Shown here: one piece after another, positions 7,612 through 35,759 of the stretch | How positions within the stretch are numbered: the stretch's first letter is position 1 | Layout: every line of letters starts with the position of its first letter | Assembly (NCBI GenBank): GCA_016845305.1 | Contig: JAERSW010000042.1 | Coordinates: forward strand, 17,923-81,922 | Origin: Acidimicrobiales bacterium | GTDB taxonomy: Bacteria; Actinomycetota; Acidimicrobiia; Acidimicrobiales; MedAcidi-G1 | DNA length: 64,000 nt | Direction of reading: 5' to 3' | Program-made: the position numbers and the translations under genes | The notes under the pieces: generated by a model | What the model was told of the DNA's origin: nothing | Database searches by the model: none | What the model saw: only the letters and a program-made list of their open reading frames with translations

Positions 7612-7687
7612 GGGTCGCTAGCTCATCGGGTAGAGCAGGGGACTTTTAATCCCAAGGTGCCGGGTTCGAGCCCCGGGCGACCCACCA
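7612..7687 (+). tRNA. tRNA-Lys (anticodon TTT)
   Basis: GGGTCGCTAGCTCATCGGGTAGAGCAGGGGACTTTTAATCCC...GGGTTCGAGCCCCGGGCGACCCACCA. Acceptor arms GGGTCGC/GCGACCC pair, the anticodon loop is CTTTTAA, the T-loop is TTCGAGC, and CCA is encoded. Confidence 0.95.
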
Positions 7688-23711: not shown

Positions 23712-24599
23712 TCACGACCCCTTCGAATCGGCGGCCGCGTCGGCGTCCCGGCGCAGTCGCAGGTGTCGACCCTCGGCCGGACGCAGCTGCTGGTTCTCCC
23801 GATGGTGGACCCGCGAGTAGCCGATGAACTTCACGATGATGATCCCCCACAGGTAGAAGCCGCCCAGCAGCTTCATGATGAGGCCGGCGGCCTGCTGGTC
23901 GGACCGCACCGTCACGCCGAAGGCCTGATAGCCGTCGTCGTAGTGCTTGTAGACGGTGCCCTCGGCGAAGGTCAGCCACGCGGCGGGGATGGTCGGGATG
24001 ACCGACATCAGGAACAGGTAGATCATCTGGCCGGGCACCGAGATCCGCAGCTCGGGCAGCGGCGCGGCGACCGGCACCCACATGAGCAGGGCACTCAGGA
24101 ACAGGGCGAGGTGCACGCCGTAGTGGAACGCCCCCGAGTCGAACGACCACTGGACCACGCCGCTCCAGTGGGTCAGGGCCGTGAGGCCATTGAAGAGCAC
24201 GCCGGCCACCACCGGATGCGCCATGCGCCGCAGGATCCGCGACCCCCGACCCCCGTCGAGCACCAGCAGCCTTGCCAGCCACGCCGGCATGGCCAGCAGG
24301 AACAGCGGCGGCACGATGAACGTGATCACCAGGTGCTGGACCATGTGCACCGCGTAGAGGTGCTCCTCGGCGATGTCGTGCACCGGCCAGTCGGCCGACA
24401 CCAGAAGCAGCAGCGTGGCGACCACGAAGGCCCGTCGTTGGAACGGGGTCGTGACCGGTTCCCCGGCCGGGACGACCCTCGGGCCGATGACCCGGGTGGC
24501 CCACCAGCCGAGGGCCACGACGGCGAGGACGAGGAACCAGACCTCGGGGTGGGCCTGCCATCGCCACGGGTCGGGCGAGGCGGCGAGGAGGACGGTCAT
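23712..24599 (-). CDS. ctaG: cytochrome c oxidase assembly factor CtaG (Caa3_CtaG family membrane protein)
   Basis: MTVLLAASPDPWRWQAHPEVWFLVLAVV...HLYAVHMVQHLVITFIVPPLFLLAMP... Confidence 0.85.
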   Translation of the reverse strand: MTVLLAASPDPWRWQAHPEVWFLVLAVVALGWWATRVIGPRVVPAGEPVTTPFQRRAFVVATLLLLVSADWPVHDIAEEHLYAVHMVQHLVITFIVPPLFLLAMPAWLARLLVLDGGRGSRILRRMAHPVVAGVLFNGLTALTHWSGVVQWSFDSGAFHYGVHLALFLSALLMWVPVAAPLPELRISVPGQMIYLFLMSVIPTIPAAWLTFAEGTVYKHYDDGYQAFGVTVRSDQQAAGLIMKLLGGFYLWGIIIVKFIGYSRVHHRENQQLRPAEGRHLRLRRDADAAADSKGS

Positions 24600-24671: not shown

Positions 24672-25001
24672 CTAGCCCTTGTGCCAGAACTCGAAGACGG
24701 TGAGCATGATCCCGTACACGATGGTGGCCAGGATCAACCCCGCCACGAAGAACTTCGTGAACATGGGGCTGTCGAACTTCAGGTGCATGAACCAGGCGGC
24801 CACGTAGAAGAACTTGTAGACCATCATCAGCATCAGGACCGGGATGAGGATCTCGCCCGGCACGCTCTCCATCCAGTACGTCGCCACCTCGAGGGCGGTG
24901 ACGATGGCCAGGATGATGGCGACCTGGACGTACTTCCTGTCCGACGGGTGGTCGTGGGCCTCGTCGTGCGAGTCCACGTGCTCTGCGGTGTCGGTGCTCA
25001 T
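24672..25001 (-). CDS. cytochrome c oxidase subunit IV (caa3/Bacillus CtaF-CoxD type, 3 TM)
   Basis: 109 aa: ...RKYVQVAIILAIVTALEVATYW...MLMMVYKFFYVAAWFMHLKFD.... The N-terminus is His/Asp-rich (EHVDSHDEAHDHPSD). Confidence 0.85.
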   Translation of the reverse strand: MSTDTAEHVDSHDEAHDHPSDRKYVQVAIILAIVTALEVATYWMESVPGEILIPVLMLMMVYKFFYVAAWFMHLKFDSPMFTKFFVAGLILATIVYGIMLTVFEFWHKG

Positions 25002-25032: not shown

Positions 25033-25638
25033 TCAGCTGGTGGGCGAGGGGACCAGGTAGATGACGGTGAAGATGAAGATCCACACCACGTCGACGAAGT
25101 GCCAGTACAGGCCCACGATCTCGACCGTCTCCGACCGCTCCTTGGTGAGCGTCCCCCGGAACGACGAGATGAGCAGCGACATCAGCATGACGATGCCGAG
25201 GCTGACGTGCACGCCGTGGAAGCCGGTCAGGGTGAAGAACGCCGACGAGAACGGGCTGGTGGTGTAGCCCAGGCCCTCCCGCAGGAAGGTCGTGAACTCG
25301 TACACCTGGCCGCCGATGAACAGCGAGCCCAGCAGGGCGGTGGTCAGCAGCCAGATCCGGTTGTTGCGGATGTCGCCGCGCTGCAGCGCCGACAGCGCCA
25401 GCACCATGGTCAGCGAACTCATCAGCAGCACGAACGAGCTGACCGACGTGAACGGGATGTCGAAGATGTCGCCGGGCGCCGGCCCGTCACCGAACCGACC
25501 CCGGTAGATCAGGTAGGTCGAGATCAGGCCACCGAACAGCAGGCATTCCGAACCCAGGAACGTCCACATCAGGAGCTTGTTGTTGGACAGGCCGGTGCCC
25601 GTCCCGTGGCCGTGCGACACGGCGGCGGCGTCAGCCAA
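25033..25638 (-). CDS. ctaE: cytochrome c oxidase subunit III
   Basis: TTG start 25636-25638 is preceded by GAGGAGG (6-nt spacer) and overlaps the ctaD stop. ...LLMWTFLGSECLLFGGLISTY...FFTLTGFHGVHVSLG...LYWHFVDVVWIFIF. Confidence 0.9.
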   Translation of the reverse strand: MADAAAVSHGHGTGTGLSNNKLLMWTFLGSECLLFGGLISTYLIYRGRFGDGPAPGDIFDIPFTSVSSFVLLMSSLTMVLALSALQRGDIRNNRIWLLTTALLGSLFIGGQVYEFTTFLREGLGYTTSPFSSAFFTLTGFHGVHVSLGIVMLMSLLISSFRGTLTKERSETVEIVGLYWHFVDVVWIFIFTVIYLVPSPTS

Positions 25639-27610
25639 CGGGGGCCTCCTCAGCGGTCTCGGCGGCAGCCTCTCCGGCGTCACCGTGGTCGTCGGGACCC
25701 TGGTCGTCATGACCGTGGTCGTCATGACCGTGGCCGTGCGGACCGTCCGGGTCGTCGGTCGGCTCGAACACCCAGCCGTAGATGGCCATCAGCACCAGGG
25801 CACCGCCCGGCACGCAGAACCACAGCGAGTACATGAGGCCGAACCCGATGAACGGCAGGCCGGCGGCCAGGACGATCGGCCAGTAGGACGGCGACGGCAG
25901 GTGGGTGTCGGTCGCCGAGCCGTCCTGGCAGACCTCTTCGGCCGTCGCCACCCGGACCACCCGGCCGTCCTCGTCCTGGCCGTACTTGCGGTGCCAGAAC
26001 TCGTCGAGGGCCTCGACCTGGATGTCGTCGTCGAAGTTGTGCACCGGCGTCGGGTTCGGGGTGAACCACTCGAGGCTGCGGGCGTCCCACGGGTCGAGGC
26101 CGACCGGCGGAGCGTGCTTGGCGGCCCTCGCGGAGACCCAGACGTTGAGCAGGAACGCCAGCACGCCGAGGCCGATGATGAAGGCCCCGATGGTGGCGAA
26201 CATGTTCCAGAACTCGAAGCCGAAGCCGGGGCTGTAGGTGTCGATCCGCCGCGACATGCCCTGGAGCCCGAGGATGTGCATCGGGCCGAAGGTCATGTTG
26301 AAGCCGACGATCATCAGCCAGAAGTTCCACTTGCCCAGCTTCTCGTTCAGCAGGTGGCCGAACGCCTTGGGCCACCAGAAGTAGAAGCCGGCGAAGATGC
26401 CGAGCAGGGCGCCACCGAAGATCACGTAGTGGAAGTGGGCGACGATGTAGTAGGTGTCGGTCTGCTGGGTGTCGGCCGGGGCCAGCGAGTGGGTCACGCC
26501 GGACAGGCCGCCGATGGTGAACATCGACACCACGCCGGAGGCGAACAGCATCGGCGTGTTGAACCGGATCTTCCCGCCCCACATGGTGGCCAGCCAGTTC
26601 AGGATCTTCACGCCGGTCGGCACGGCGATGAACATCGTCGACACCGAGAAGGCGGCGACGGAGATCGGGCCGATGCCGGACACGAACATGTGGTGGGCCC
26701 ACACGCCCCAGCCCATGAAGCCGATGGCGATGCCCGAGAACACCATGAACGGGTAGCCGAAGATGGGCTTCCGGGAGAAGGTCGGGATGACCTCGCTGAT
26801 GATGCCGAAGCTGGGCAGGATCAGGATGTACACCTCGGGGTGTCCGAAGATCCAGAACAGGTGCTGCCACAGCAGCGGATCGGCGCCCATCTCCGGGTTG
26901 AAGAAGTTGGCGCCGAAGTTCCGGTCGAACATGAGCAGGAACAGGGCGACGGTGATGACCGGCACGGCGAACAGCAGCAGGAACTGCACCACCAGGATCA
27001 TCCACGTGAACACCGGCATCTTGAACAACGTCATGCCCGGAGCCCGCATGTTGAGCACGGTCACGATCAGGTTCATCGCCGAGACCAACGACGCGATGCC
27101 CATGATCTGCAGGCCGAGGGCGTAGAAGTCCATGCCCTTGCCCGGCGAGAAGATCGTCCCGGTGTTCGGGGCGTAGGCGAACCAGCCACCGTCGGGGGCG
27201 TCGCCGAAGACCCAGGCCATGTTCAGGAACAGGCCGCCGAACAGGAACACCCAGTACGACAGGGCGTTCAGGCGGGGGAAGGCCACGTCGCGGGCACCGA
27301 TCTGCAACGGCAGCAGGTAGTTCGCGAACGCGGCGGCCAGCGGCATGATCACCATGAAGACCATGGTCACGCCGTGCATCGTGTACACCCGGTTGTAGGT
27401 GTCGGCGCCCAGCACCGTCCCGTCCGGCGTGGCCAGCTGGAGTCGGATCAGCAGCGCCTCGAGGCCACCGATCAGGAAGAAGAGCATGGCGGTGGCGCCG
27501 TAGAGGATGCCGATCTTCTTGTGGTCGACGGTGGTGATCCAGTCGCGCCACCCGGTGTTGCCCTTGGGTCGGGTGTAGACCCCGATCGGGCTGGCCGTCG
27601 TCTCGCTCAT
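25631..27610 (-). CDS. ctaD: cytochrome c oxidase subunit I with a C-terminal CtaF-like 2-TM extension and a His/Asp-rich tail
   Basis: All six canonical metal-ligand His are present (TMHGV; GHPEVY; WAHHMF; AHFHYV). There is about 120 aa extra after ...PVHNFDDD, including LPSPSYWPIVLAAGLPFIGFG...LMAIYGWVFEP and HGHGHDDHGHDDQGPDDHGD. Confidence 0.95.
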   Translation of the reverse strand: MSETTASPIGVYTRPKGNTGWRDWITTVDHKKIGILYGATAMLFFLIGGLEALLIRLQLATPDGTVLGADTYNRVYTMHGVTMVFMVIMPLAAAFANYLLPLQIGARDVAFPRLNALSYWVFLFGGLFLNMAWVFGDAPDGGWFAYAPNTGTIFSPGKGMDFYALGLQIMGIASLVSAMNLIVTVLNMRAPGMTLFKMPVFTWMILVVQFLLLFAVPVITVALFLLMFDRNFGANFFNPEMGADPLLWQHLFWIFGHPEVYILILPSFGIISEVIPTFSRKPIFGYPFMVFSGIAIGFMGWGVWAHHMFVSGIGPISVAAFSVSTMFIAVPTGVKILNWLATMWGGKIRFNTPMLFASGVVSMFTIGGLSGVTHSLAPADTQQTDTYYIVAHFHYVIFGGALLGIFAGFYFWWPKAFGHLLNEKLGKWNFWLMIVGFNMTFGPMHILGLQGMSRRIDTYSPGFGFEFWNMFATIGAFIIGLGVLAFLLNVWVSARAAKHAPPVGLDPWDARSLEWFTPNPTPVHNFDDDIQVEALDEFWHRKYGQDEDGRVVRVATAEEVCQDGSATDTHLPSPSYWPIVLAAGLPFIGFGLMYSLWFCVPGGALVLMAIYGWVFEPTDDPDGPHGHGHDDHGHDDQGPDDHGDAGEAAAETAEEAPVG

Positions 27611-28803
27611 CGGTCGACCTCCGTCGCCGCGATGACCTCCATCGTCGGGCTGCTCCCCAGCGTCGACAGGTAGGCCACCACGTCATCGATCTGGCTCTCG
27701 CTGAGGCCCATGGCCGGCATGCCCCGGCGACCCTCGGCGTAGGCGGGCTTCTCCTCGGGGGCGTTCCGCAACCAGGCCTCCAGCTGCGGGCGGCTCAGCG
27801 AGCCGTCCGGCTGGTACAGGTCGAAGATGCCACCGGCGTAGGTGGTCCGGCTCATGAAGTGTGTGAGGTTCGGCGCGGCGTTGGCGACCAGGTCGGCCCC
27901 ACCACCGTCGTTGATGCCGTTCACCACGTGGCAGCGGGTGCACTGGCCCTCGAAGACGGCCCGGCCCCGCTGTGCCGCGGCGTCGGTCGGCTCGGCTGCC
28001 GGCTGGACCTGCTCGTCGATCCAGGCCTGGAAGTCGGCCGGATCCATGGCCACGGTCTGCATCCGCATCCGCGAGTGGCTGAGGCCGCAGAACTCGGTGC
28101 ACTGGCCGAAGTAGACGCCCGGGGTGACCGCCTCGATCTTCCACGGCGAGATGCGGTACGGCACGGCGTCGCGCTTGCCGTTGAGCGCCGGGATCCAGAA
28201 GCTGTGGATCACGTCACGGCTGGTGAGCTTCAGGCCGATCTCCGAACCGGTCGGGATGACCAGCTGGTTGGCGGTGACGATGTCGGCGGGCGGCAGGTGC
28301 CGGGGGTCGGACAGGTCGACGCCGTCCAGCCCGTCGAAGTAGTAGCGGAACTCCCACCACCACTGCTGGCCGACGACCACCACCTCGGGGTCCCAGGAGG
28401 TGCGCTCGCCGTCGACGCTGACCACGATGTCCGTGCGGTCCTCACCGTTGATGTCGAAGTGGGTGAGCAGCGTGAACACGGCGATCAGGGCCATGAGCAC
28501 GGCGGGACCGATGGTCCAACCGAGCTCGGCCCGAAGGTGGCCGTGGACCTGCTCCGGGAACTCGTCGGTGCTGTGGTCGTCGCGGAACTTCCACCAGATG
28601 AGGGCCGTGGCGCCGAAGATGATGACGAAGACGATGCCGGCGATCAGGAAGACCGGATCAGAAAGCTCGTCGATGGTCTCGGCGATCGGGCCCTGAGGCT
28701 CCAGGGTGTCCAGGGGCGCGTCGGAGGCACAGCCCGTCAGGACGGCCAGGCCGCCGAGGAGGAGGGCGGCGAGCCGCCCGGAACGCAGGGACTTGGGGAT
28801 CAA
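27607..28803 (-). CDS. ctaC: cytochrome c oxidase subunit II with a fused C-terminal cytochrome c domain (caa3 type), lipoprotein
   Basis: TTG 28801-28803 overlaps the upstream stop. LAALLLGGLAVLTGCASD carries a lipobox. CuA motif: HSFWIPALNGK...CTEFCGLSHSRM. Heme c motif: CTRCH. Confidence 0.92.
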   Translation of the reverse strand: MIPKSLRSGRLAALLLGGLAVLTGCASDAPLDTLEPQGPIAETIDELSDPVFLIAGIVFVIIFGATALIWWKFRDDHSTDEFPEQVHGHLRAELGWTIGPAVLMALIAVFTLLTHFDINGEDRTDIVVSVDGERTSWDPEVVVVGQQWWWEFRYYFDGLDGVDLSDPRHLPPADIVTANQLVIPTGSEIGLKLTSRDVIHSFWIPALNGKRDAVPYRISPWKIEAVTPGVYFGQCTEFCGLSHSRMRMQTVAMDPADFQAWIDEQVQPAAEPTDAAAQRGRAVFEGQCTRCHVVNGINDGGGADLVANAAPNLTHFMSRTTYAGGIFDLYQPDGSLSRPQLEAWLRNAPEEKPAYAEGRRGMPAMGLSESQIDDVVAYLSTLGSSPTMEVIAATEVDR

Positions 28804-29591
28804 TGGTCCGCCTCCGCGTGGGCGTCGTCTTGGTGGGCGCCGCCGCCCTTGTGGTGGAACTCCCGCTCGCCGCTGACCGCCGTCACGATGCCGAGGACCA
28901 GCACGGCGACGCAGCCCACGAAGAGGATGCCGCGAACCGCCACCCGGGGCAGGTCCGGACGCTGGCTGACCAGCACGGCGAGGCCGAAGATGACGATGCC
29001 GACCACGGTGGCCACCCAGACGGCGCCGGTGACCGACGAGGCCAGCAGGATCCGGGACACGGCGAGGACGAGGACGCCCACGCCGATGGTGCCGAGGATC
29101 GGGATCTCGATGGGCCGCATCAGGTTCTCGCGGGCCTCGGCGTTGGCGGCCGGGTCTCCGGAGACCTTCTCGGACCAGTTGGTCATCGTCCACTCGACGG
29201 CGACGGCGGCCACGATGCAGAGGCCGATCACGAAGACGGCGGGGTGCACGACCAGTCCGACACCGAGGGTGCCGACGCCGAGGGCGCCGAAGACCGGCCA
29301 CAGCGAGCTGCCGACCTCGTGCTGGGCGGCGGGCGCCTCGTCGAGGCCCAGGACCTCGGCCTGTGCCTCGGCATCGGCGTCGCGGAAGGCCACGGCGACG
29401 AGGCCGAACAGGGCCAGCACGCCGGCGGCGAAGACGAGGATGGTGTACGAGACGTGGTTGCCGACGCCGCCCTTCCAGCCCAGCGAGAGGGGGCCGGTCT
29501 CGGTGGCGCCCGACGTGTAGCCGGCGAACACCGCGGCGAAGACGACGGCGACGAAGAATCCGAACCAGAGCTTGAACCCGGTGGTGAGCAT
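28800..29591 (-). CDS. 8-TM membrane protein: N-terminal half resembles actinobacterial oxidase subunit CtaF (Cyt_c_ox_IV), C-terminal half is unknown
   Basis: 263 aa. MLTTGFKLWFGFFVAVVFAAVFAGY... then an acidic loop ...HEVGSSLWPVFGALGVGTLGVGL...AAVAVEW, four further TM helices, and a C-terminal HHKGGGAHQDDAHAEADH. Confidence 0.65.
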   Translation of the reverse strand: MLTTGFKLWFGFFVAVVFAAVFAGYTSGATETGPLSLGWKGGVGNHVSYTILVFAAGVLALFGLVAVAFRDADAEAQAEVLGLDEAPAAQHEVGSSLWPVFGALGVGTLGVGLVVHPAVFVIGLCIVAAVAVEWTMTNWSEKVSGDPAANAEARENLMRPIEIPILGTIGVGVLVLAVSRILLASSVTGAVWVATVVGIVIFGLAVLVSQRPDLPRVAVRGILFVGCVAVLVLGIVTAVSGEREFHHKGGGAHQDDAHAEADH

Positions 29592-29606: not shown

Positions 29607-30185
29607 CTACTTGGCGATGTAGATGCCGATCCAGATGACCGAGTACACGGCCACCGAGGCGTACCAGTAGAGGGCGGCCGCCGAGACGAGGTCGCGGTGC
29701 CGGCTGGTGTCCTGGCCGCCAAGGGCCCGCAGCAGCAGGAGCCCCAGCCAGAGCACGCCGATCGCCACCATCACCATGTGCGAGCCGACGATGGTGAACA
29801 GCAGCGTCGCCGCCTCGCTGGCGTCGATGGGCAGGCCGATGTCCTTGAAGTAGAAGACCGTCTGGTTGACCATGGCGATGCCCAGCACCGCGGTCAGGGC
29901 CATGGCGATCATGGCGTGGATCCGGTCGTCGTTCAGGACGGCGTGGACGGCCCAGCCCATGGTGATGGCCGACATGGCCATGGTCGACATGTTCATGCCG
30001 CCGGGCACCAACTGGATGGCCCCCTCCGGGTACCACTGGGCACCCCACGCCATGGCGTCGTGGCGGATGGAGAAGTAGAGGGCGAACAGGCAGCCGAAGT
30101 ACATGACGACGCTGCCCGTGCCGAAGGCCGAGGCGACCACCAGGGTCCGGGGCCGGGTCGGCGCGGCGGGGACGGTGGAGGCCAT
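29607..30185 (-). CDS. heme-copper oxidase subunit III-like paralog (5 TM)
   Basis: 192 aa, colinear with ctaE in this window: ...LLFTIVGSHMVMVAIGVLWL...AAALYWYASVAVYSVIWIGIYIAK versus FFTLTGFHGVHVSLG...LYWHFVDVVWIFIF. The ATG shares one base with the upstream stop (TGATG). Confidence 0.75.
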   Translation of the reverse strand: MASTVPAAPTRPRTLVVASAFGTGSVVMYFGCLFALYFSIRHDAMAWGAQWYPEGAIQLVPGGMNMSTMAMSAITMGWAVHAVLNDDRIHAMIAMALTAVLGIAMVNQTVFYFKDIGLPIDASEAATLLFTIVGSHMVMVAIGVLWLGLLLLRALGGQDTSRHRDLVSAAALYWYASVAVYSVIWIGIYIAK

Positions 30186-31672
30186 CAGGCGGCGCCCTTC
30201 CGGTTGGCGGCGGTGTGCAGGCTCCCGGTCAGCATCCAGATGGCCAGGCCACCCAGCAGCGCCAGCGAGCCGACCAGCGACACGAGGTTCAGGCCGTCGA
30301 CGCCCGAGTCGGGGTTGCCGGCGGTGGCCAGGTCGACGCCGGTGAAGTCGGCCTGGTCCAGCAGGCCGCTGACCAGGTCGGCCACGCCGACGAGCACCGT
30401 GCCCCCGGCCACGGCGAGGCCACCGAGCAGGAAGAGGCCCGGTCGGCGACCCTTGGGACCAACCAGCTCCTCACCCCAGTGGTGGAAGCCGGCGCCGACG
30501 CCGAGGACGACGGCGCCCAACACGAGGGCGAAGTGGGCGCCGGTGACCGAGGTGTCGAGCAACTCCAGCGGGGCGATGACCCGCACCGCGCCCACCGCCG
30601 TGGCGGCCAGCACCAGCACGGCGGCCAGCACCGAGCAGACGGCCTCGGCCGGCGGCTTCGAACCCAGGTTGCCGGCGCCACGGCGCAGCGTGTCGGCCAG
30701 GCCGCCCACGATGGCCAGGGCGACCGGGACGATGGCGAAGGCGGCGACCACCGAGATGGCCTCCTCGGCGACCGGGGTGCCGGGCGTGTCGAAGAAGGTC
30801 TGGGCGAAGGCGCCGAACGACAGGAAGCCGAACGCCGCGGTGGCCACCAGGAGCACGTCGCGGTTGGCCTGCTCGGTCCGGGTGGCAGACGACACGAGGT
30901 CCAGGGCGATGCCCAGCACGGGAAGGGCCAGCACGTAGATGGCCGGGTGGGTGAACATCCAGGAGAGCTGCTCCCAGATGGCGTCCTCGGCACCGAAGCG
31001 CACGGCCGGGCGACCCCGCAGGTCGACGTAGGCGAGCACGGCGTTGGCGGCCAGGACGCCCAGCATCCCCGTCCACACCGTGGCGCCGACCAGCGTGGTC
31101 CAGGCGGTGTAGGGCAGGTCCCGCAGGCCGGTGCCGGCGGCCCGACCGGAGACGATGGTGGTCATCACGCAGACCGAGGCCAGCAGCAGGCCGCCGATGG
31201 CGAGCAGGAGGCCCATCATGGTCAACGCCGTGGCCTCGCGCTGGCCACCGCCACCGGGGGTGCCGAGGCCGCCGTCCACGAGGAAGCCGGCGACGGTCAT
31301 GCCAGCGCCGACCAGCCAGGTCCAGCAGGCCATCGCCGCGGCCCGGGGGAAGACCAGGGAGCCGCCGCACTGGCGGGGCACCACGGTGGTGGCGAGGGCC
31401 ATGAGAGCGGGCAGGACGCCGAGCAGCACGAAGGCCACGCGGTGGGCCGACCAGAACTGGAAGACCTCGTCCGCGCTGCCGAACACGTCGGCCGAGGCGA
31501 GGTCCAGACGCTCCAGGCCCACCAGGAGGCCGGCCACGGCCCCCAGGAGGATGGACGTCATGCCACCGAATCCCCACACCCGCGCCAGCGCCACGGGATC
31601 CGTGGTGGTGACGGCCTGCTCCAGGGCGGTCGGCGCGGAATCGGAGGCGGCGGCGTTGTCAGTCGTCGTCAT
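30185..31672 (-). CDS. degenerate heme-copper oxidase subunit I-like protein (lacks the helix VII CuB His pair and the second helix X His)
   Basis: 495 aa, colinear with the in-window CtaD: FWSAHRVAFVLLGVLP (helix II His kept); WMFTHPAIYVLALP (helix VI His and Tyr kept); FGAFAQTFF in place of WGVWAHHMF; GAHFALVLG in place of AHFHYVIFG. Confidence 0.75.
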   Translation of the reverse strand: MTTTDNAAASDSAPTALEQAVTTTDPVALARVWGFGGMTSILLGAVAGLLVGLERLDLASADVFGSADEVFQFWSAHRVAFVLLGVLPALMALATTVVPRQCGGSLVFPRAAAMACWTWLVGAGMTVAGFLVDGGLGTPGGGGQREATALTMMGLLLAIGGLLLASVCVMTTIVSGRAAGTGLRDLPYTAWTTLVGATVWTGMLGVLAANAVLAYVDLRGRPAVRFGAEDAIWEQLSWMFTHPAIYVLALPVLGIALDLVSSATRTEQANRDVLLVATAAFGFLSFGAFAQTFFDTPGTPVAEEAISVVAAFAIVPVALAIVGGLADTLRRGAGNLGSKPPAEAVCSVLAAVLVLAATAVGAVRVIAPLELLDTSVTGAHFALVLGAVVLGVGAGFHHWGEELVGPKGRRPGLFLLGGLAVAGGTVLVGVADLVSGLLDQADFTGVDLATAGNPDSGVDGLNLVSLVGSLALLGGLAIWMLTGSLHTAANRKGAA

Positions 31673-31871
31673 CGAAGCTTCTCAGGTCAGCGGGCGGGTG
31701 GAGTGCCCTCGTCCGGCGATCCGAGCGCGCTCGGACCAGACGAGGCTAGGCGGATCGACGGTGGTTCCGGCGCTCGCACGTCCGGCGCAATCTAGTCGGC
31801 GCGCGCCCGGTCGGCTGACCTGAACGAGGAAAAGCACGGCCTGTCGCGGCGCCCGGGCGGGGTCCAACGGG

Positions 31872-32798: not shown

Positions 32799-33641
32799 TC
32801 AGGCTAGGAGCCAGTCGGCCGGGGTCGGTCCGTCCGGATAGAGGCGTTGCTGGAACCGACGCATCCCGGCCAGCCAGCGGTCGACGTCGTCGCCCTTGCG
32901 GCGGACGTACTCGGCCACGTCCGGATGGGGCAGGACGTGGAAGCGCCCGTCGGCCAGGGCCTCGACCACCGTGTCGGCCAGCTCGGCCGCCGTCAGCACC
33001 CCGTCGACCGCGGCGGCCCCGGACGGCCCGTCGCCGGGCATCAGGTCGGCCGTCGGGCTGTTGGTCGTGATGTTGGTGGCCACCGCCTGCGGGCACAGCA
33101 CCGACACCCCGATGCCCCGGTCGCCGTAGGTGACGCTGATCCACTCGGCCAACGACACCGCCGCGTTCTTGGTCACCGAGTAGTGGAGCGAACCGATCTG
33201 GGTCAGCAGGCCGGCGGCCGACGAGGTGTTCAGCAGGTGCCCGCCACCGGCCGCCACCATGTGGGGGATGGCGTACCGGGCCGCGTACAGGTGGGCCATC
33301 ACGTGGACGTCGAACATGCGGTGCAGCTCGTCGTCCGGCGCCTCGAGGCCACCGACGGTGACGTAGCCGGCGTTCGACGCCATCAGGTCGATCCGTCCGT
33401 GGCGCTCCACCGTGCCGTCGACGAGGGCCCGGACCGCGGCCTCGTCGGACACGTCGCAGCCCGTGGCCTCCACCGCCGTCGCCCCGCCGGCGAGCCTCCC
33501 GGCCAGGGCCTCCACGCCGGCGACGTCCCGGTCGGCGGCCACCACCGCGGCCGCCCCCTCGGCGGCGAACCGCTCCACCATCGCCTCGCCGATCCCGCTG
33601 GCCGCACCGGTCACGACCACCACGCTGTCCCTGAGTTCCAT
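32799..33641 (-). CDS. SDR-family oxidoreductase
   Basis: Internal ATG (cat 33639-33641): [21 protein letters not shown]...NTSSAAG...[13 protein letters not shown] (TGxxxGxG motif and YxxxK). Confidence 0.88.
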
Positions 33642-33686: not shown

Positions 33687-34619
33687 GTGAGCGAGGACGC
33701 GCCCCGACGACGTGGCCCCCTGACCCCCGACGGGTACCGCCGGATCTGCGGCGTGGCCCTCGGGCTGCTGGCCGGGATCGTGGTGTCGGGCGCCGCGGTG
33801 CGCCTGACCGGCTCGGGCCTCGGCTGCTCGGACTGGCCGACCTGCGAACAGGACCAGTTCGTCCCCGAGGCGAACCTCCACGGCTGGATCGAGTTCGGGA
33901 ACCGGCTGGTGACCGGGCTGGTGTCCCTTGCCGTGGTCGCCGCGGTGCTCGGATCGATGGCCCGGTGGCCGCGCCGGCGCGACCTGCTGCGCTGGTCGTG
34001 GGGCCTGGTCGGAGGCGTCGTCGGCCAGGTGGTCCTCGGTGGCCTGGTGGTGCTCAGCCACCTGAACCCGTGGCTGGTCCTCGGACACTTCGCCCTGTCG
34101 ATGGTGCTGGTGTGGAACGCGGTGGTGCTCCACCACCTGGCCGGGGACCACGCCCGTCCCCCCGTGGTCGTCCCCGACGTGGTCCGACGCCTCACCGGCG
34201 TGCTGTGGGGCCTGGCGGTCCTCGTCCTGGCCAGCGGCACCCTGGTGACCGGATCGGGACCGCACGCCGGCAGCCACGACGACCCCATCCCCCGCCTGCC
34301 GTTCACCGTCCTGGAGGCGGCCCGCGTCCACGGCACGAGCGTGGTCGTCCTGCTCGGCGTGGTCGCCGCCCTGGTGCTGGCCGTCCGGCGCCACGGGGCC
34401 GAAGCGTCGGTGCGTCGGGCCGTGGCGTGGCTGGTCGGGGTGGTCGCCGCGCAGGCCGCCATCGGATGGACCCAGTACTTCACCGGCGTGCCCGTCGTGC
34501 TCGTCGGCCTGCACGTGGCCGGCGCCACCGCGCTGTGGATGGTCGTCGTCCGGCTCCGGCTGGTGGCCGTCGACCGCCGGGGCCCCGCCGAGGCGCTGGT
34601 GGGAGGGCCTCCCTCGTGA
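33687..34619 (+). CDS. ctaA: heme A synthase (COX15/CtaA)
   Basis: GTG 33687: [53 protein letters not shown]...LGHFALSM... Confidence 0.9.
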
Positions 34620-34951
34620 GCCACCCGCCGACCCTCACGGACGCGCCCACCACCGACGCGCCCACCACCAACAGGCCCGACGTCGACCTCGGCACCGACG
34701 AGGACGTGGCGACCGACCGGCCGTGGATCGTGCTGGTGTGGAACGACCCCATCAACCTGATGTCGTACGTCTCGTTCGTCTTCCAGAAGCTCTTCGGCTA
34801 CTCGAAGGCCAAGGCCGACCGGTTGATGCTGGACGTCCACCACAAGGGCCGGGCCGTGGTGTCCGGCGGGACCCGGGAGAAGGCCGAGATGGACGTCTTC
34901 CGCCTCCACGAGCACGGCCTGTGGGCCACGCTGCAGCGGGAGGACCGGTGA
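34616..34951 (+). CDS. clpS: ATP-dependent Clp protease adaptor ClpS
   Basis: ...[76 protein letters not shown] 34616 overlaps the ctaA stop (GTGA). A later in-frame GTG start is possible. Confidence 0.88.
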
Positions 34952-35418
34952 TCCTGCGACGGCGGAAGGCCCTGGCCTTCCAGCGGGACGGCGAGCGGAC
35001 CGTCGTCCTCCTCGGCCCCGACGAACGCGACCTGATGGCCGACCTGGCCCGGCAGTTCCACGCCGTGGTGGCCGACGACGACGACCCCGCCCTGGCCCGC
35101 CTCTACCCGACCGCCTACGTGGACGACCGGGAGCGCCAGGACGACTACGCCTCGCTGGTCCACGACGACCTCGTTCGGACCCGCCTGGACGCCGCCGACG
35201 TGGTGCTGGCCACGGCTCACTCGGAGTCGCTGGATGATGACGAGCTGGCCTCGTGGATGCAGGTCCTGAACGGACTGCGCCTGCTCCTGGGCACCCGTCT
35301 GGACGTGTCCGAGGAGGACGGCTTCGACCCCGAGGCCCCGGACGCCCCTCAGCGGGCCCTCCTCGCCTGGCTGGGATTCCTCCTCGAGGAGACGGTCGGC
35401 GCGGCGTCCGACGGGTGA
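34948..35418 (+). CDS. DUF2017 domain-containing protein (usual clpS neighbour in actinobacteria)
   Basis: GTG 34948 overlaps the clpS stop: [37 protein letters not shown]...[13 protein letters not shown]... Confidence 0.75.
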
Positions 35419-35468: not shown

Positions 35469-35541
35469 GCCCCCATCGTCCAGCGGCCTAGGACGCCTGC
35501 CTTTCACGCAGGTAACACGGGTTCGAATCCCGTTGGGGGTG
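35469..35541 (+). tRNA. tRNA-Glu (anticodon TTC)
   Basis: GCCCCCATCGTCCAGCGGCCTAGGACGCCTGCCTTTCACGCAGGTAACACGGGTTCGAATCCCGTTGGGGGTG. The anticodon loop is CTTTCAC. Confidence 0.92.
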
Positions 35542-35573
35542 CGAAGGACGTCCGGTTCCGATCGGACGACCGG

Positions 35574-35651
35574 GGTCCTGTGGTGCAGTTTGGAGTGCAC
35601 GCCGGCCTGTCAAGCCGGAGGTCGCGGGTTCAAATCCCGTCAGGACCGCCA
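35574..35651 (+). tRNA. tRNA-Asp (anticodon GTC)
   Basis: GGTCCTGTGGTGCAGTTTGGAGTGCACGCCGGCCTGTCAAGCCGGAGGTCGCGGGTTCAAATCCCGTCAGGACCGCCA. Acceptor arms GGTCCTG/CAGGACC pair. Confidence 0.93.
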
Positions 35652-35655
35652 CCGT

Positions 35656-35677
35656 CGCCCGCCCTCCGGGGCGGGCG
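35656..35677 (+). other. GC hairpin between tRNA-Asp and tRNA-Phe (processing or terminator-like)
   Basis: CGCCCGCCC-TCCG-GGGCGGGCG, a perfect 9-bp stem. Confidence 0.6.
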
Positions 35678-35683
35678 GTGCAC

Positions 35684-35759
35684 GGTCGGGTAGCTCAGTT
35701 GGCAGAGCGTCCGCCTGAAAAGCGGAAGGTCACCGGATCGACGCCGGTCCCGACCACCA
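35684..35759 (+). tRNA. tRNA-Phe (anticodon GAA)
   Basis: GGTCGGGTAGCTCAGTTGGCAGAGCGTCCGCCTGAAAAGCGGAAGGTCACCGGATCGACGCCGGTCCCGACCACCA. Confidence 0.94.

Follow-up and report, generated by a model that had tools for sequence, protein, structure and literature searches.

A ligand-depleted oxidase subunit I paralogue ahead of ctaC in the caa3-type gene cluster of Acidimicrobiia

Why would a bacterium keep, ahead of ctaC in a caa3-type cytochrome c oxidase cluster, a heme-copper oxidase (HCO) subunit I gene whose product lacks half of the metal ligands? The question is raised by X1, a gene of 495 codons on the minus strand of a stretch of 64,000 nt from an Acidimicrobiales bacterium of the MedAcidi-G1 lineage (assembly GCA_016845305.1, contig JAERSW010000042.1, positions 17,923 to 81,922). 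This whole stretch is called the window, and all coordinates below are given in its positions. An earlier sequence-only reading of the window had described X1 as a degenerate subunit I paralogue and had left its role between several possibilities. Here we report that X1 is a true A-family subunit I homologue which, judged by its residues, cannot be a canonical redox subunit, that its family as a whole appears to be free of cofactors, and that it is kept in Acidimicrobiia together with two further genes, X3 and X4. We consider it an even call that the three proteins form an inactive module in, or docked onto, the caa3 oxidase.

Homology of X1 and loss of its cofactor residues

The COX1 profile search proposed with the sequence-only reading matched X1 to Pfam PF00115 over residues 37-441 (E=1.3e-35). 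The score was 123.6 bits with a gathering cut-off of 34.8, compared to 525.5 bits for the canonical CtaD encoded in the same cluster. BLASTP aligned X1 to this CtaD with 28% identity over 413 columns (E=2e-32), and the helix blocks quoted in the earlier reading were all reproduced; written as X1/CtaD they are SAHRVAFVLLGVLP/TMHGVTMVFMVIMP, WMFTHPAIYVLALP/WIFGHPEVYILILP, FAQTFF/WAHHMF and AHFALV/AHFHYV. The AlphaFold2 (AF2) model of X1 has a predicted local distance difference test score (pLDDT) of 86.5 and a predicted TM-score (pTM) of 0.89, and Foldseek superposed it on bovine, mycobacterial and E. coli subunit I with TM-scores of 0.75-0.84 over about 490 columns (0.8-0.84 for the bovine and actinobacterial proteins). 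As the profile matches, the best PDB matches and the fold all point the same way, X1 is a true A-family HCO subunit I homologue. The scores against the equivalog models were far below the cut-offs, with 128 bits vs 670.75 for TIGR02891 CtaD_CoxA and 95.9 bits vs 880 for the actinobacterial aa3 model NF050116.

In phmmer alignments to M. smegmatis CtaD (6hwh) and B. subtilis QoxB (6koc) the same X1 residues stood opposite the canonical ligands. Helix II of the window's X1 retains H77, helix VI retains H242 and Y246, and helix X has H379 at the high-spin heme position, just as had been read from the letters. Q291 and T292 of helix VII occupy two of the CuB histidine positions and A381 of helix X that of the second low-spin heme histidine, and the reported replacements of HH by QT and of His by Ala thereby hold against the ligands of solved subunit I structures. 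Six histidines are expected in an active subunit I (two for the low-spin heme, one for the high-spin heme and three for CuB/FeB), and three of them are found here. An A-family enzyme is further expected to carry D132, N139 and E286 in the D-channel, K362 and T359 in the K-channel and an Arg pair, R481/R482, at the heme propionates. X1 does not carry this set: D132 is replaced by L, N139 and E286 by A and K362 by a hydrophobic residue, with D/F in place of the Arg pair. A protein with such residues is predicted to build neither a CuB centre nor a bis-His low-spin heme, hence X1 cannot be the canonical redox subunit. Q291, T292 and A381 likewise support the earlier statement that X1, having no normal CuB or bis-His heme a, is not simply a second oxidase.

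To what extent these losses are shared was followed in three sets of relatives. The 77 X1 relatives returned by a first protein search came without exception from Acidimicrobiia or Actinomycetota metagenomes. A scan in which each species was represented by one genome, seeded with 20 closer sequences, detected the gene in at least 104 Acidimicrobiia species, from which 79 loci were retrieved, and a second protein search seeded from a soil member added 447 further homologues, with Rhabdothermincola sp. among the record names. Ligands were counted in 77 non-redundant genomic orthologues and 118 further full-length members, altogether 195 proteins. Among the genomic orthologues 25 keep none of the canonical histidines, 23 keep one, 23 keep two and six keep three; the X1 of the window belongs to these six, three being the family maximum. 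The further members are poorer still (none in 87, one in 30 and two in a single protein), and 112 of the 195 have no canonical ligand at all. Even among close relatives the retained histidines vary, as the H77 position is Tyr in an orthologue of 89% identity, and the H379 position is Asn at 79% identity and Gln at 71-77%.

The first CuB position of helix VII is Gln in all 77 genomic orthologues and in 116 of the 118 further members, and across both sets the helix VII pair reads Q followed by T, S or P. A survey of the substitutions in orthologues, suggested together with the earlier reading, thus gave a near-universal Gln at the CuB position on the one hand and inconstant histidines on the other. 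In the family E286 has become Q, A or M, K362 is hydrophobic, D132 is S or T, N139 is A and R481/R482 is D/F; the canonical residues are gone from all members, save for one Glu at the E286 position. What is conserved at 90% or more consists almost entirely of Pro, Gly and Trp residues and of the P-side loop motifs which X1 has in common with canonical CtaD. In the 77 genomic members this level is attained by no His, Met, Cys, Lys or Tyr, and no potential axial ligand is conserved among them. Bulky residues specific to the family stand beside the lost ligands, for instance R78 where Gly would be expected and W200 in place of Leu.

Since the ligands, the channel residues and the propionate Arg pair are lost family-wide with no substitute ligand conserved, the X1 family as a whole appears to be cofactor-less, and the three histidines of the window's protein look to be relics of its own lineage. 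The suggestion that the retained His and Tyr mark a half-functional or catalytically different site is not supported, given the variability of these histidines and the 112 members with none. It should be noted that the region of the former active site is nevertheless among the best conserved parts of X1 (W238, Q291 and F294). No variation is seen at Q291, conservation is 92% at Q235 and N210, and D295 with the GTP after it is likewise invariant in the closer clade. Among marine-clade members, down to 44% identity, at least 90% keep H242 and all keep Y246; the wider family has Q, N, G or P at the helix VI His position and Y or F at that of the Tyr.

The gene is intact wherever it was found. All 80 genomic copies are uninterrupted open reading frames (ORFs) of 491-598 aa in species at 32-94% identity, and the ratio of non-synonymous to synonymous substitution rates (dN/dS; Nei-Gojobori method, against ten orthologues) is 0.09-0.23 for X1. 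By the same method it is 0.07-0.21 for X3, 0.07-0.27 for X4 and 0.04-0.13 for CtaD. These ratios show that X1 is maintained by purifying selection, the opposite of the decay or absence in close relatives that had been named as evidence against a functional gene. X1 is also the fastest-evolving gene of the operon: it evolves about twice as fast as the canonical CtaD, its median identity to the window is 45% vs 77% for CtaD, and in 54 of 62 loci no other operon gene is less conserved. Such a rate is typical of an accessory rather than a catalytic subunit.

Gene order and the partners of X1

The minus strand between 23.7 and 32.8 kb holds a Bacillus-like cta cluster. Together with ctaA and the gene between ctaA and ctaB, its features are as follows, from the ctaA side onwards; TM stands for transmembrane.

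33687..34619, plus strand: ctaA, heme A synthase (Pfam COX15-CtaA, E=8e-22)
32799-33641: SDR gene, preceding ctaB and divergent from ctaA
31872..32792, minus strand: ctaB, heme O synthase, directly upstream of X1 (NF003349 396 bits and TIGR01473 324 bits, both exceeding the cut-offs)
31673..31871, minus strand: non-coding gap of 199 nt between ctaB and X1
30185..31672, minus strand: X1, ligand-depleted A-family HCO subunit I paralogue, 495 aa, 12 TM helices
29607..30185, minus strand: X3, degenerate subunit III paralogue, 192 aa
28800..29591, minus strand: X4, 7-TM protein without a Pfam match of its own, 263 aa
27607..28803, minus strand: ctaC, subunit II with a fused cytochrome c domain (Pfam COX2_TM, COX2 and Cytochrom_C; TIGR02866 170 bits, exceeding the cut-off)
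25631..27610, minus strand: ctaD, canonical subunit I with a C-terminal subunit IV-like extension (Pfam COX1 525.5 bits; TIGR02891 696 bits, exceeding the cut-off)
25033..25725, minus strand: ctaE, canonical subunit III (Pfam COX3 E=2e-18; CyoC and QoxC models E=1e-45); start uncertain, with candidates also at 25638 and 25620
24672..25001, minus strand: ctaF, Bacillus-type subunit IV (Pfam COX4_pro; TIGR02229 exceeding the cut-off)
23712..24599, minus strand: ctaG, caa3-type assembly factor (Pfam Caa3_CtaG, E=3.7e-37)

The order ctaB-X1-X3-X4-ctaC-D-E-F-G was found in every one of the 79 species loci long enough to show it, and also on closed or long contigs, including a closed contig of 3.66 Mb. 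X1 had been called the first gene of the cta operon. This is right for the structural block, while ctaB lies 199 nt upstream and X1 is therefore not the first gene of the whole cluster. In the window the stop codon of X1 and the start codon of X3 overlap as TGATG, the junction by which X1 had been paired with a subunit III-like gene. An overlap of 1-4 nt between X1 and X3 occurs in about 56 of 80 loci, and one between X4 and ctaC in about 47 of 77. These overlapping stop and start codons suggest translational coupling.

The gap between ctaB and X1 is itself conserved. About 110 nt are nearly invariant in nine relatives in which coding dS is 0.3-1.5, that is diverged or near saturation. Two TANNNT-like motifs, GGCTAGnnT and CTAGC[AC]T, lie about 45 nt apart and are kept order-wide including low-GC lineages, and an inverted repeat CGATCCG...CGGATCG is present in the clade of the window. 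No Rfam family was found in the gap, the Rfam scan yielding tRNAs only, and a scan of 23-35 kb for sigma-70 promoters and terminators gave nothing above shuffled sequences. We suggest that the gap probably holds a promoter or operator and the 5' untranslated region of the X1-ctaG block.

X3 was matched by Pfam PF00510 COX3 with 46.9 bits (E=4.4e-12), exceeding the gathering cut-off of 23.8, in agreement with the description of its gene as subunit III-like. Aligned to the window's CtaE it shows 27% identity (E=3e-12) and degraded forms of the GFHGxHV and YWHFVD motifs; NF050119 aa3_CtaE_Actin gave 50 bits vs a cut-off of 190. On these alignments X3 is a paralogue of CtaE, a pseudo-subunit III.

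X4, the third gene of the module, was absent from the earlier reading. The protein of the window gave no match in Pfam or NCBIfam, nor any in PDB sequences, where it was searched both as a single sequence and as a profile. On the other hand, hhalign related its residues 94-138 (helices 3-4) to the PF12270-like extension of CtaD with a probability of 92% (E=6e-7, 45 columns), one X4 orthologue matches PF12270 weakly (E=0.019), and the distant homologue P0265 scores 31.1 bits with a gathering cut-off of 26.9. Hence the four N-terminal helices of X4 seem to resemble actinobacterial subunit IV. The family is large, with 1133 representatives at 50% clustering in the profile search. Its longer members (340-410 aa, from other Acidimicrobiia lineages, e.g. 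P0234, P0265, P0291 and P0333) bear a C-terminal cupredoxin domain, and at least one of these stands in the gene order of the module (L088, 2695-3924); P0265 seems to have no X3 directly upstream. A blue-copper C..H..M motif, such as FMCDVHPDM, is present in about six of 49 long members and the remainder look ligand-less, by which the X4 cupredoxin appears to have lost its cofactor in parallel with X1. In the clade of the window X4 lacks this domain and ends in a His-, Asp- and Glu-rich tail (28800-28870). At least three His occur within the last 30 residues in 58 of 80 orthologues, and across the 80 the last 20 residues are 17% His. The outer face is the probable location of the tail, which might bind metal. 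In some relatives (L058, L060 and L067) it carries a tandem HGDE/HHD repeat, e.g. EHGDEHGDEHGDEHGDEH.

The canonical CtaD of the window has all six ligands (H79, H257, H306, H307, H392 and H394) and also E259, Y261 and K335. Its C-terminal 120 aa or so (25631-26010) form a fused two-helix hairpin with a PF12270 match at residues 567-616, ending in a His/Asp-rich tail (PHGHGHDDHGHDD...). This extension was found in all relatives, where CtaD is 637-690 aa long, and a separate Bacillus-type CtaF (COX4_pro) is encoded alongside the fusion. The ctaC gene apparently starts with a TTG overlapping the X4 stop codon (ATTGA; 28780-28803), and its signal peptide is of the lipoprotein type with an LTGC lipobox, as in Bacillus CtaC.

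Known systems and possible roles of the module

Compared to A-family subunit I (M. smegmatis CtaD 6HWH, bovine COX1 1OCC and B. subtilis QoxB 6KOB), X1 has the same 12-helix fold, the P-side motifs PLQxGA...FPR and RxxGM...PxFxW, the helix VI Trp and most of the structural Pro and Gly residues. It differs in that the ligands are lost, partly in the window and wholly in most orthologues, along with the channels and the propionate Arg pair. We rejected a second oxidase, as X1 falls short in the six histidines, the channel residues and the equivalog cut-offs. A relation to the nitric oxide reductase (NOR) branches was also considered, as cNOR, qNOR, eNOR, sNOR, gNOR, bNOR and nNOR are subunit I homologues with altered active sites that do not reduce O2. 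NORs keep the high-spin heme and a three-His metal site, with one His changed to Asp in gNOR, and lack the Tyr (PMC11214002). In X1 it is the histidines themselves that are lost, with no conserved substitute ligands, and NOR was rejected because in all X1 members Q and T/S/P stand at two of the three positions of the metal site.

The partners show a comparable mixture of likeness and departure. X3 aligns end to end with the 5-TM actinobacterial CtaE model, but unlike the subunits III of PF00510 (CtaE/CyoC/QoxC) it scores far below the equivalog cut-offs and its GFHGxHV and YWHFVDVVW motifs are degraded. A COX3-like accessory protein is known in NorE. The actinobacterial subunit IV (CtaF, PF12270) relates to the N-terminal four helices of X4, to which X4 adds three helices and, unlike PF12270 proteins, a C-terminal cupredoxin in other lineages or the His/Asp-rich tail in the window.

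The nearest conceptual parallel is CydB of the cytochrome bd oxidases, a heme-less paralogue of the catalytic subunit that has kept the fold and serves as structural partner of the active subunit. The superfamily is unrelated to that of X1. Further, CydB is universal and experimentally part of its enzyme, whereas the association of X1 with caa3 is inferred and restricted to Acidimicrobiia. Another analogy is offered by the 'rogue' D1 (PsbA) paralogues, which lack the ligands of the Mn cluster and some of which have gained a new catalytic function. Both they and X1 are ligand-depleted paralogues of bioenergetic core subunits retained by selection. The proteins are unrelated and the likeness is one of analogy only; X1, unlike some rogue D1 proteins, shows no sign of a new catalytic function. 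The earlier reading knew of no described function for such a paralogue ahead of ctaC, and in those portions of the literature that our search reached we likewise found none, nor any description of a ligand-less subunit I paralogue.

With X3 a paralogue of CtaE and X4 related to subunit IV, the module looks like a shadow copy of subunits I, III and actinobacterial-type IV, and it has no subunit II gene of its own. The reading we favour, to which we give an even chance, is that X1, X3 and X4 come together in an inactive I'/III'/IV' module, which either belongs to the caa3 oxidase or docks onto it, as a pseudo-protomer or a supercomplex scaffold. Its origin would be a duplication of A-family oxidase genes within the Acidimicrobiia lineage, with loss of the hemes, CuB and the proton channels. 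The three proteins would assemble with one another, X4 supplying in trans the subunit IV-like hairpin which in the real CtaD is fused to the C-terminus. Co-produced with the caa3 subunits, the module would dock onto the active enzyme as a structural partner, moving no electrons and reducing no O2. The cupredoxin on X4 in other lineages further suggests that the ancestral module may have tethered an electron carrier next to the oxidase. Going one step further, we speculate that the triad is a complete cofactor-free 'dead protomer', descended from a blue-copper-tethering module and pairing with the active caa3 as an obligatory partner in the manner of CydB; this we offer tentatively, as somewhat less probable than not.

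Several observations weigh against an inactive docked module. Its expression, the assembly of X1 with X3 and X4 and their contact with caa3 are all read from gene order and codon overlap, and membership of the operon fits equally well with an assembly factor outside the final complex. The conservation of H242 and Y246 in the marine clade hints at an unexplained residual local role. Likewise, the conserved W238, Q291 and F294, with D295-GTP in the closer clade, could mean a small-molecule or ion site instead of pure scaffolding, and the conservation of the former active site could reflect packing or a site for a small ligand. Finally, the AF2 model of X4 is poor (pLDDT 64, pTM 0.41), which makes any fold or partner assigned to X4 tentative. 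Among the roles proposed from the sequence, those of scaffold, assembly subunit or supercomplex component stay the plausible ones.

Of the other explanations we take most seriously, although we think it unlikely, that the three proteins act as an assembly factor or chaperone, a transient scaffold that mimics the I/III core and is absent from the mature enzyme. During oxidase biogenesis it would hold CtaC, CtaE or CtaF, or else heme a or copper, a role to which we grant the same low probability. The module lies between the genes for heme a biosynthesis (ctaA, ctaB) and the structural genes, with the CuB-related ctaG at the end, and X1 keeps the P-side loops in common with canonical CtaD, which in solved oxidases face subunit II. 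The His/Asp/Glu-rich tails of X4 and its cupredoxin-bearing relatives would also be compatible with copper handling; these features, however, are lineage-specific and not universal, and X1 has no conserved residue that could ligate heme or copper. Moreover, known assembly factors such as Surf1, CtaG/Cox11, Sco, PCuAC and CtaM are small, whereas a set of 12-TM, 5-TM and 7-TM proteins with codons overlapping the structural genes looks like stoichiometric subunits. A further explanation is an independent, non-redox membrane function, in which the dead subunit I fold would serve anew as a channel, transporter or sensor (e.g. for protons, water, O2, a lipid or a quinone) and be merely co-regulated with the oxidase. 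Purifying selection on the module and the high conservation of the former binuclear-centre region with new residues (Q291, Q235, N210 and D295-GTP) would suit such a function. Against it, no conserved chain of polar or charged residues was seen within the membrane, the positions conserved family-wide are nearly all structural Pro, Gly and Trp or loops inherited from CtaD, and in more than 80 species the module is strictly tied to ctaC, with codons that overlap, which argues for an oxidase-bound role. We hold an independent function to be quite improbable.

A different redox site, with X1 binding one heme, or a heme and a non-copper metal, through the retained His and Tyr and catalysing a new reaction, seems very improbable to us. 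It draws on H77, H242, Y246 and H379 of the window's protein and on the constancy of H242 and Y246 in the marine clade. H77 and H379 come from different canonical heme sites, and hence neither site is complete; the former is Tyr in a relative of 89% identity and the latter Asn or Gln at 71-79%, most of the 195 members have none of the six histidines, the propionate-binding Arg pair, E286, K362 and D132 are all lost, and the module lacks a subunit II partner. The chance that X1 is a decaying pseudogene, or an annotation artefact of a high-GC genome, is close to nil. It is true that X1 is the least conserved gene of the operon and that high GC gives many spurious long ORFs. A pseudogene is nevertheless ruled out by the 80 full-length copies without a single disruption and by the dN/dS values, to which the confident AF2 model and the conserved stop/start overlaps may be added.

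Surroundings, annotation and meaning of the finding

Outside the cta cluster, a ClpS gene and a gene for a DUF2017 protein lie directly downstream of ctaA (34640-35418, plus strand). The same pair is found on the ctaA side of the cta cluster in the distant relatives L001, L003, L004, L085 and L086, and adjoins ctaA in those distant relatives that have ctaA there. This recurrence suggests a conserved linkage, to which we assign no meaning. A cluster of tRNA-Glu(TTC), tRNA-Asp(GTC) and tRNA-Phe(GAA) genes follows at 35469-35759 on the plus strand, and a tRNA-Lys(TTT) gene lies at 7612-7687.

Orthologues of X1 are named 'cbb3-type cytochrome c oxidase subunit I' or 'hypothetical protein' in NCBI records, and 'cytochrome c oxidase subunit 1' or 'subunit I+III' in JGI records; these names were seen on P0002, P0023, P0046, P0068, P0214 and P0426, and none of them fits a ligand-less A-family paralogue. 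A cbb3-type (C-family) subunit I was rejected, as all NCBIfam matches are to A-family models (CtaD_CoxA, cyt_aa3_Actin, CyoB and QoxB) and none is to CcoN. The 'cbb3-type' name given by PGAP is thus unsupported, all the best models being A-family. The structural genes beside X1 are those of a caa3-type ctaC-G, with no cbb3 subunit genes in the cluster. Since pipelines label X1 as an oxidase subunit, inventories of terminal oxidases, and the oxygen affinities deduced from them, would be inflated for these organisms. The carriers include abundant marine groups (Tara, ALOHA and MedAcidi bins).

Few catalytic scaffolds in biology are as strictly conserved as HCO subunit I. A family that seems to have given up every metal ligand and both proton channels, and is kept by selection in the genomes of at least 104 Acidimicrobiia species, would indicate that this fold has a second, non-redox use. 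We know of no earlier pseudoenzyme version of the HCO catalytic core that is kept as an obligatory structural partner, and if the triad does pair with the active caa3 as a dead protomer it would be the first. As a structural target the module raises the question whether these bacteria build a pair of one active and one dead oxidase or a new supercomplex architecture. Further, the apparent decay of the X4 cupredoxin across lineages, from blue-copper through ligand-less to absent, may serve as a natural series for how redox modules turn structural.

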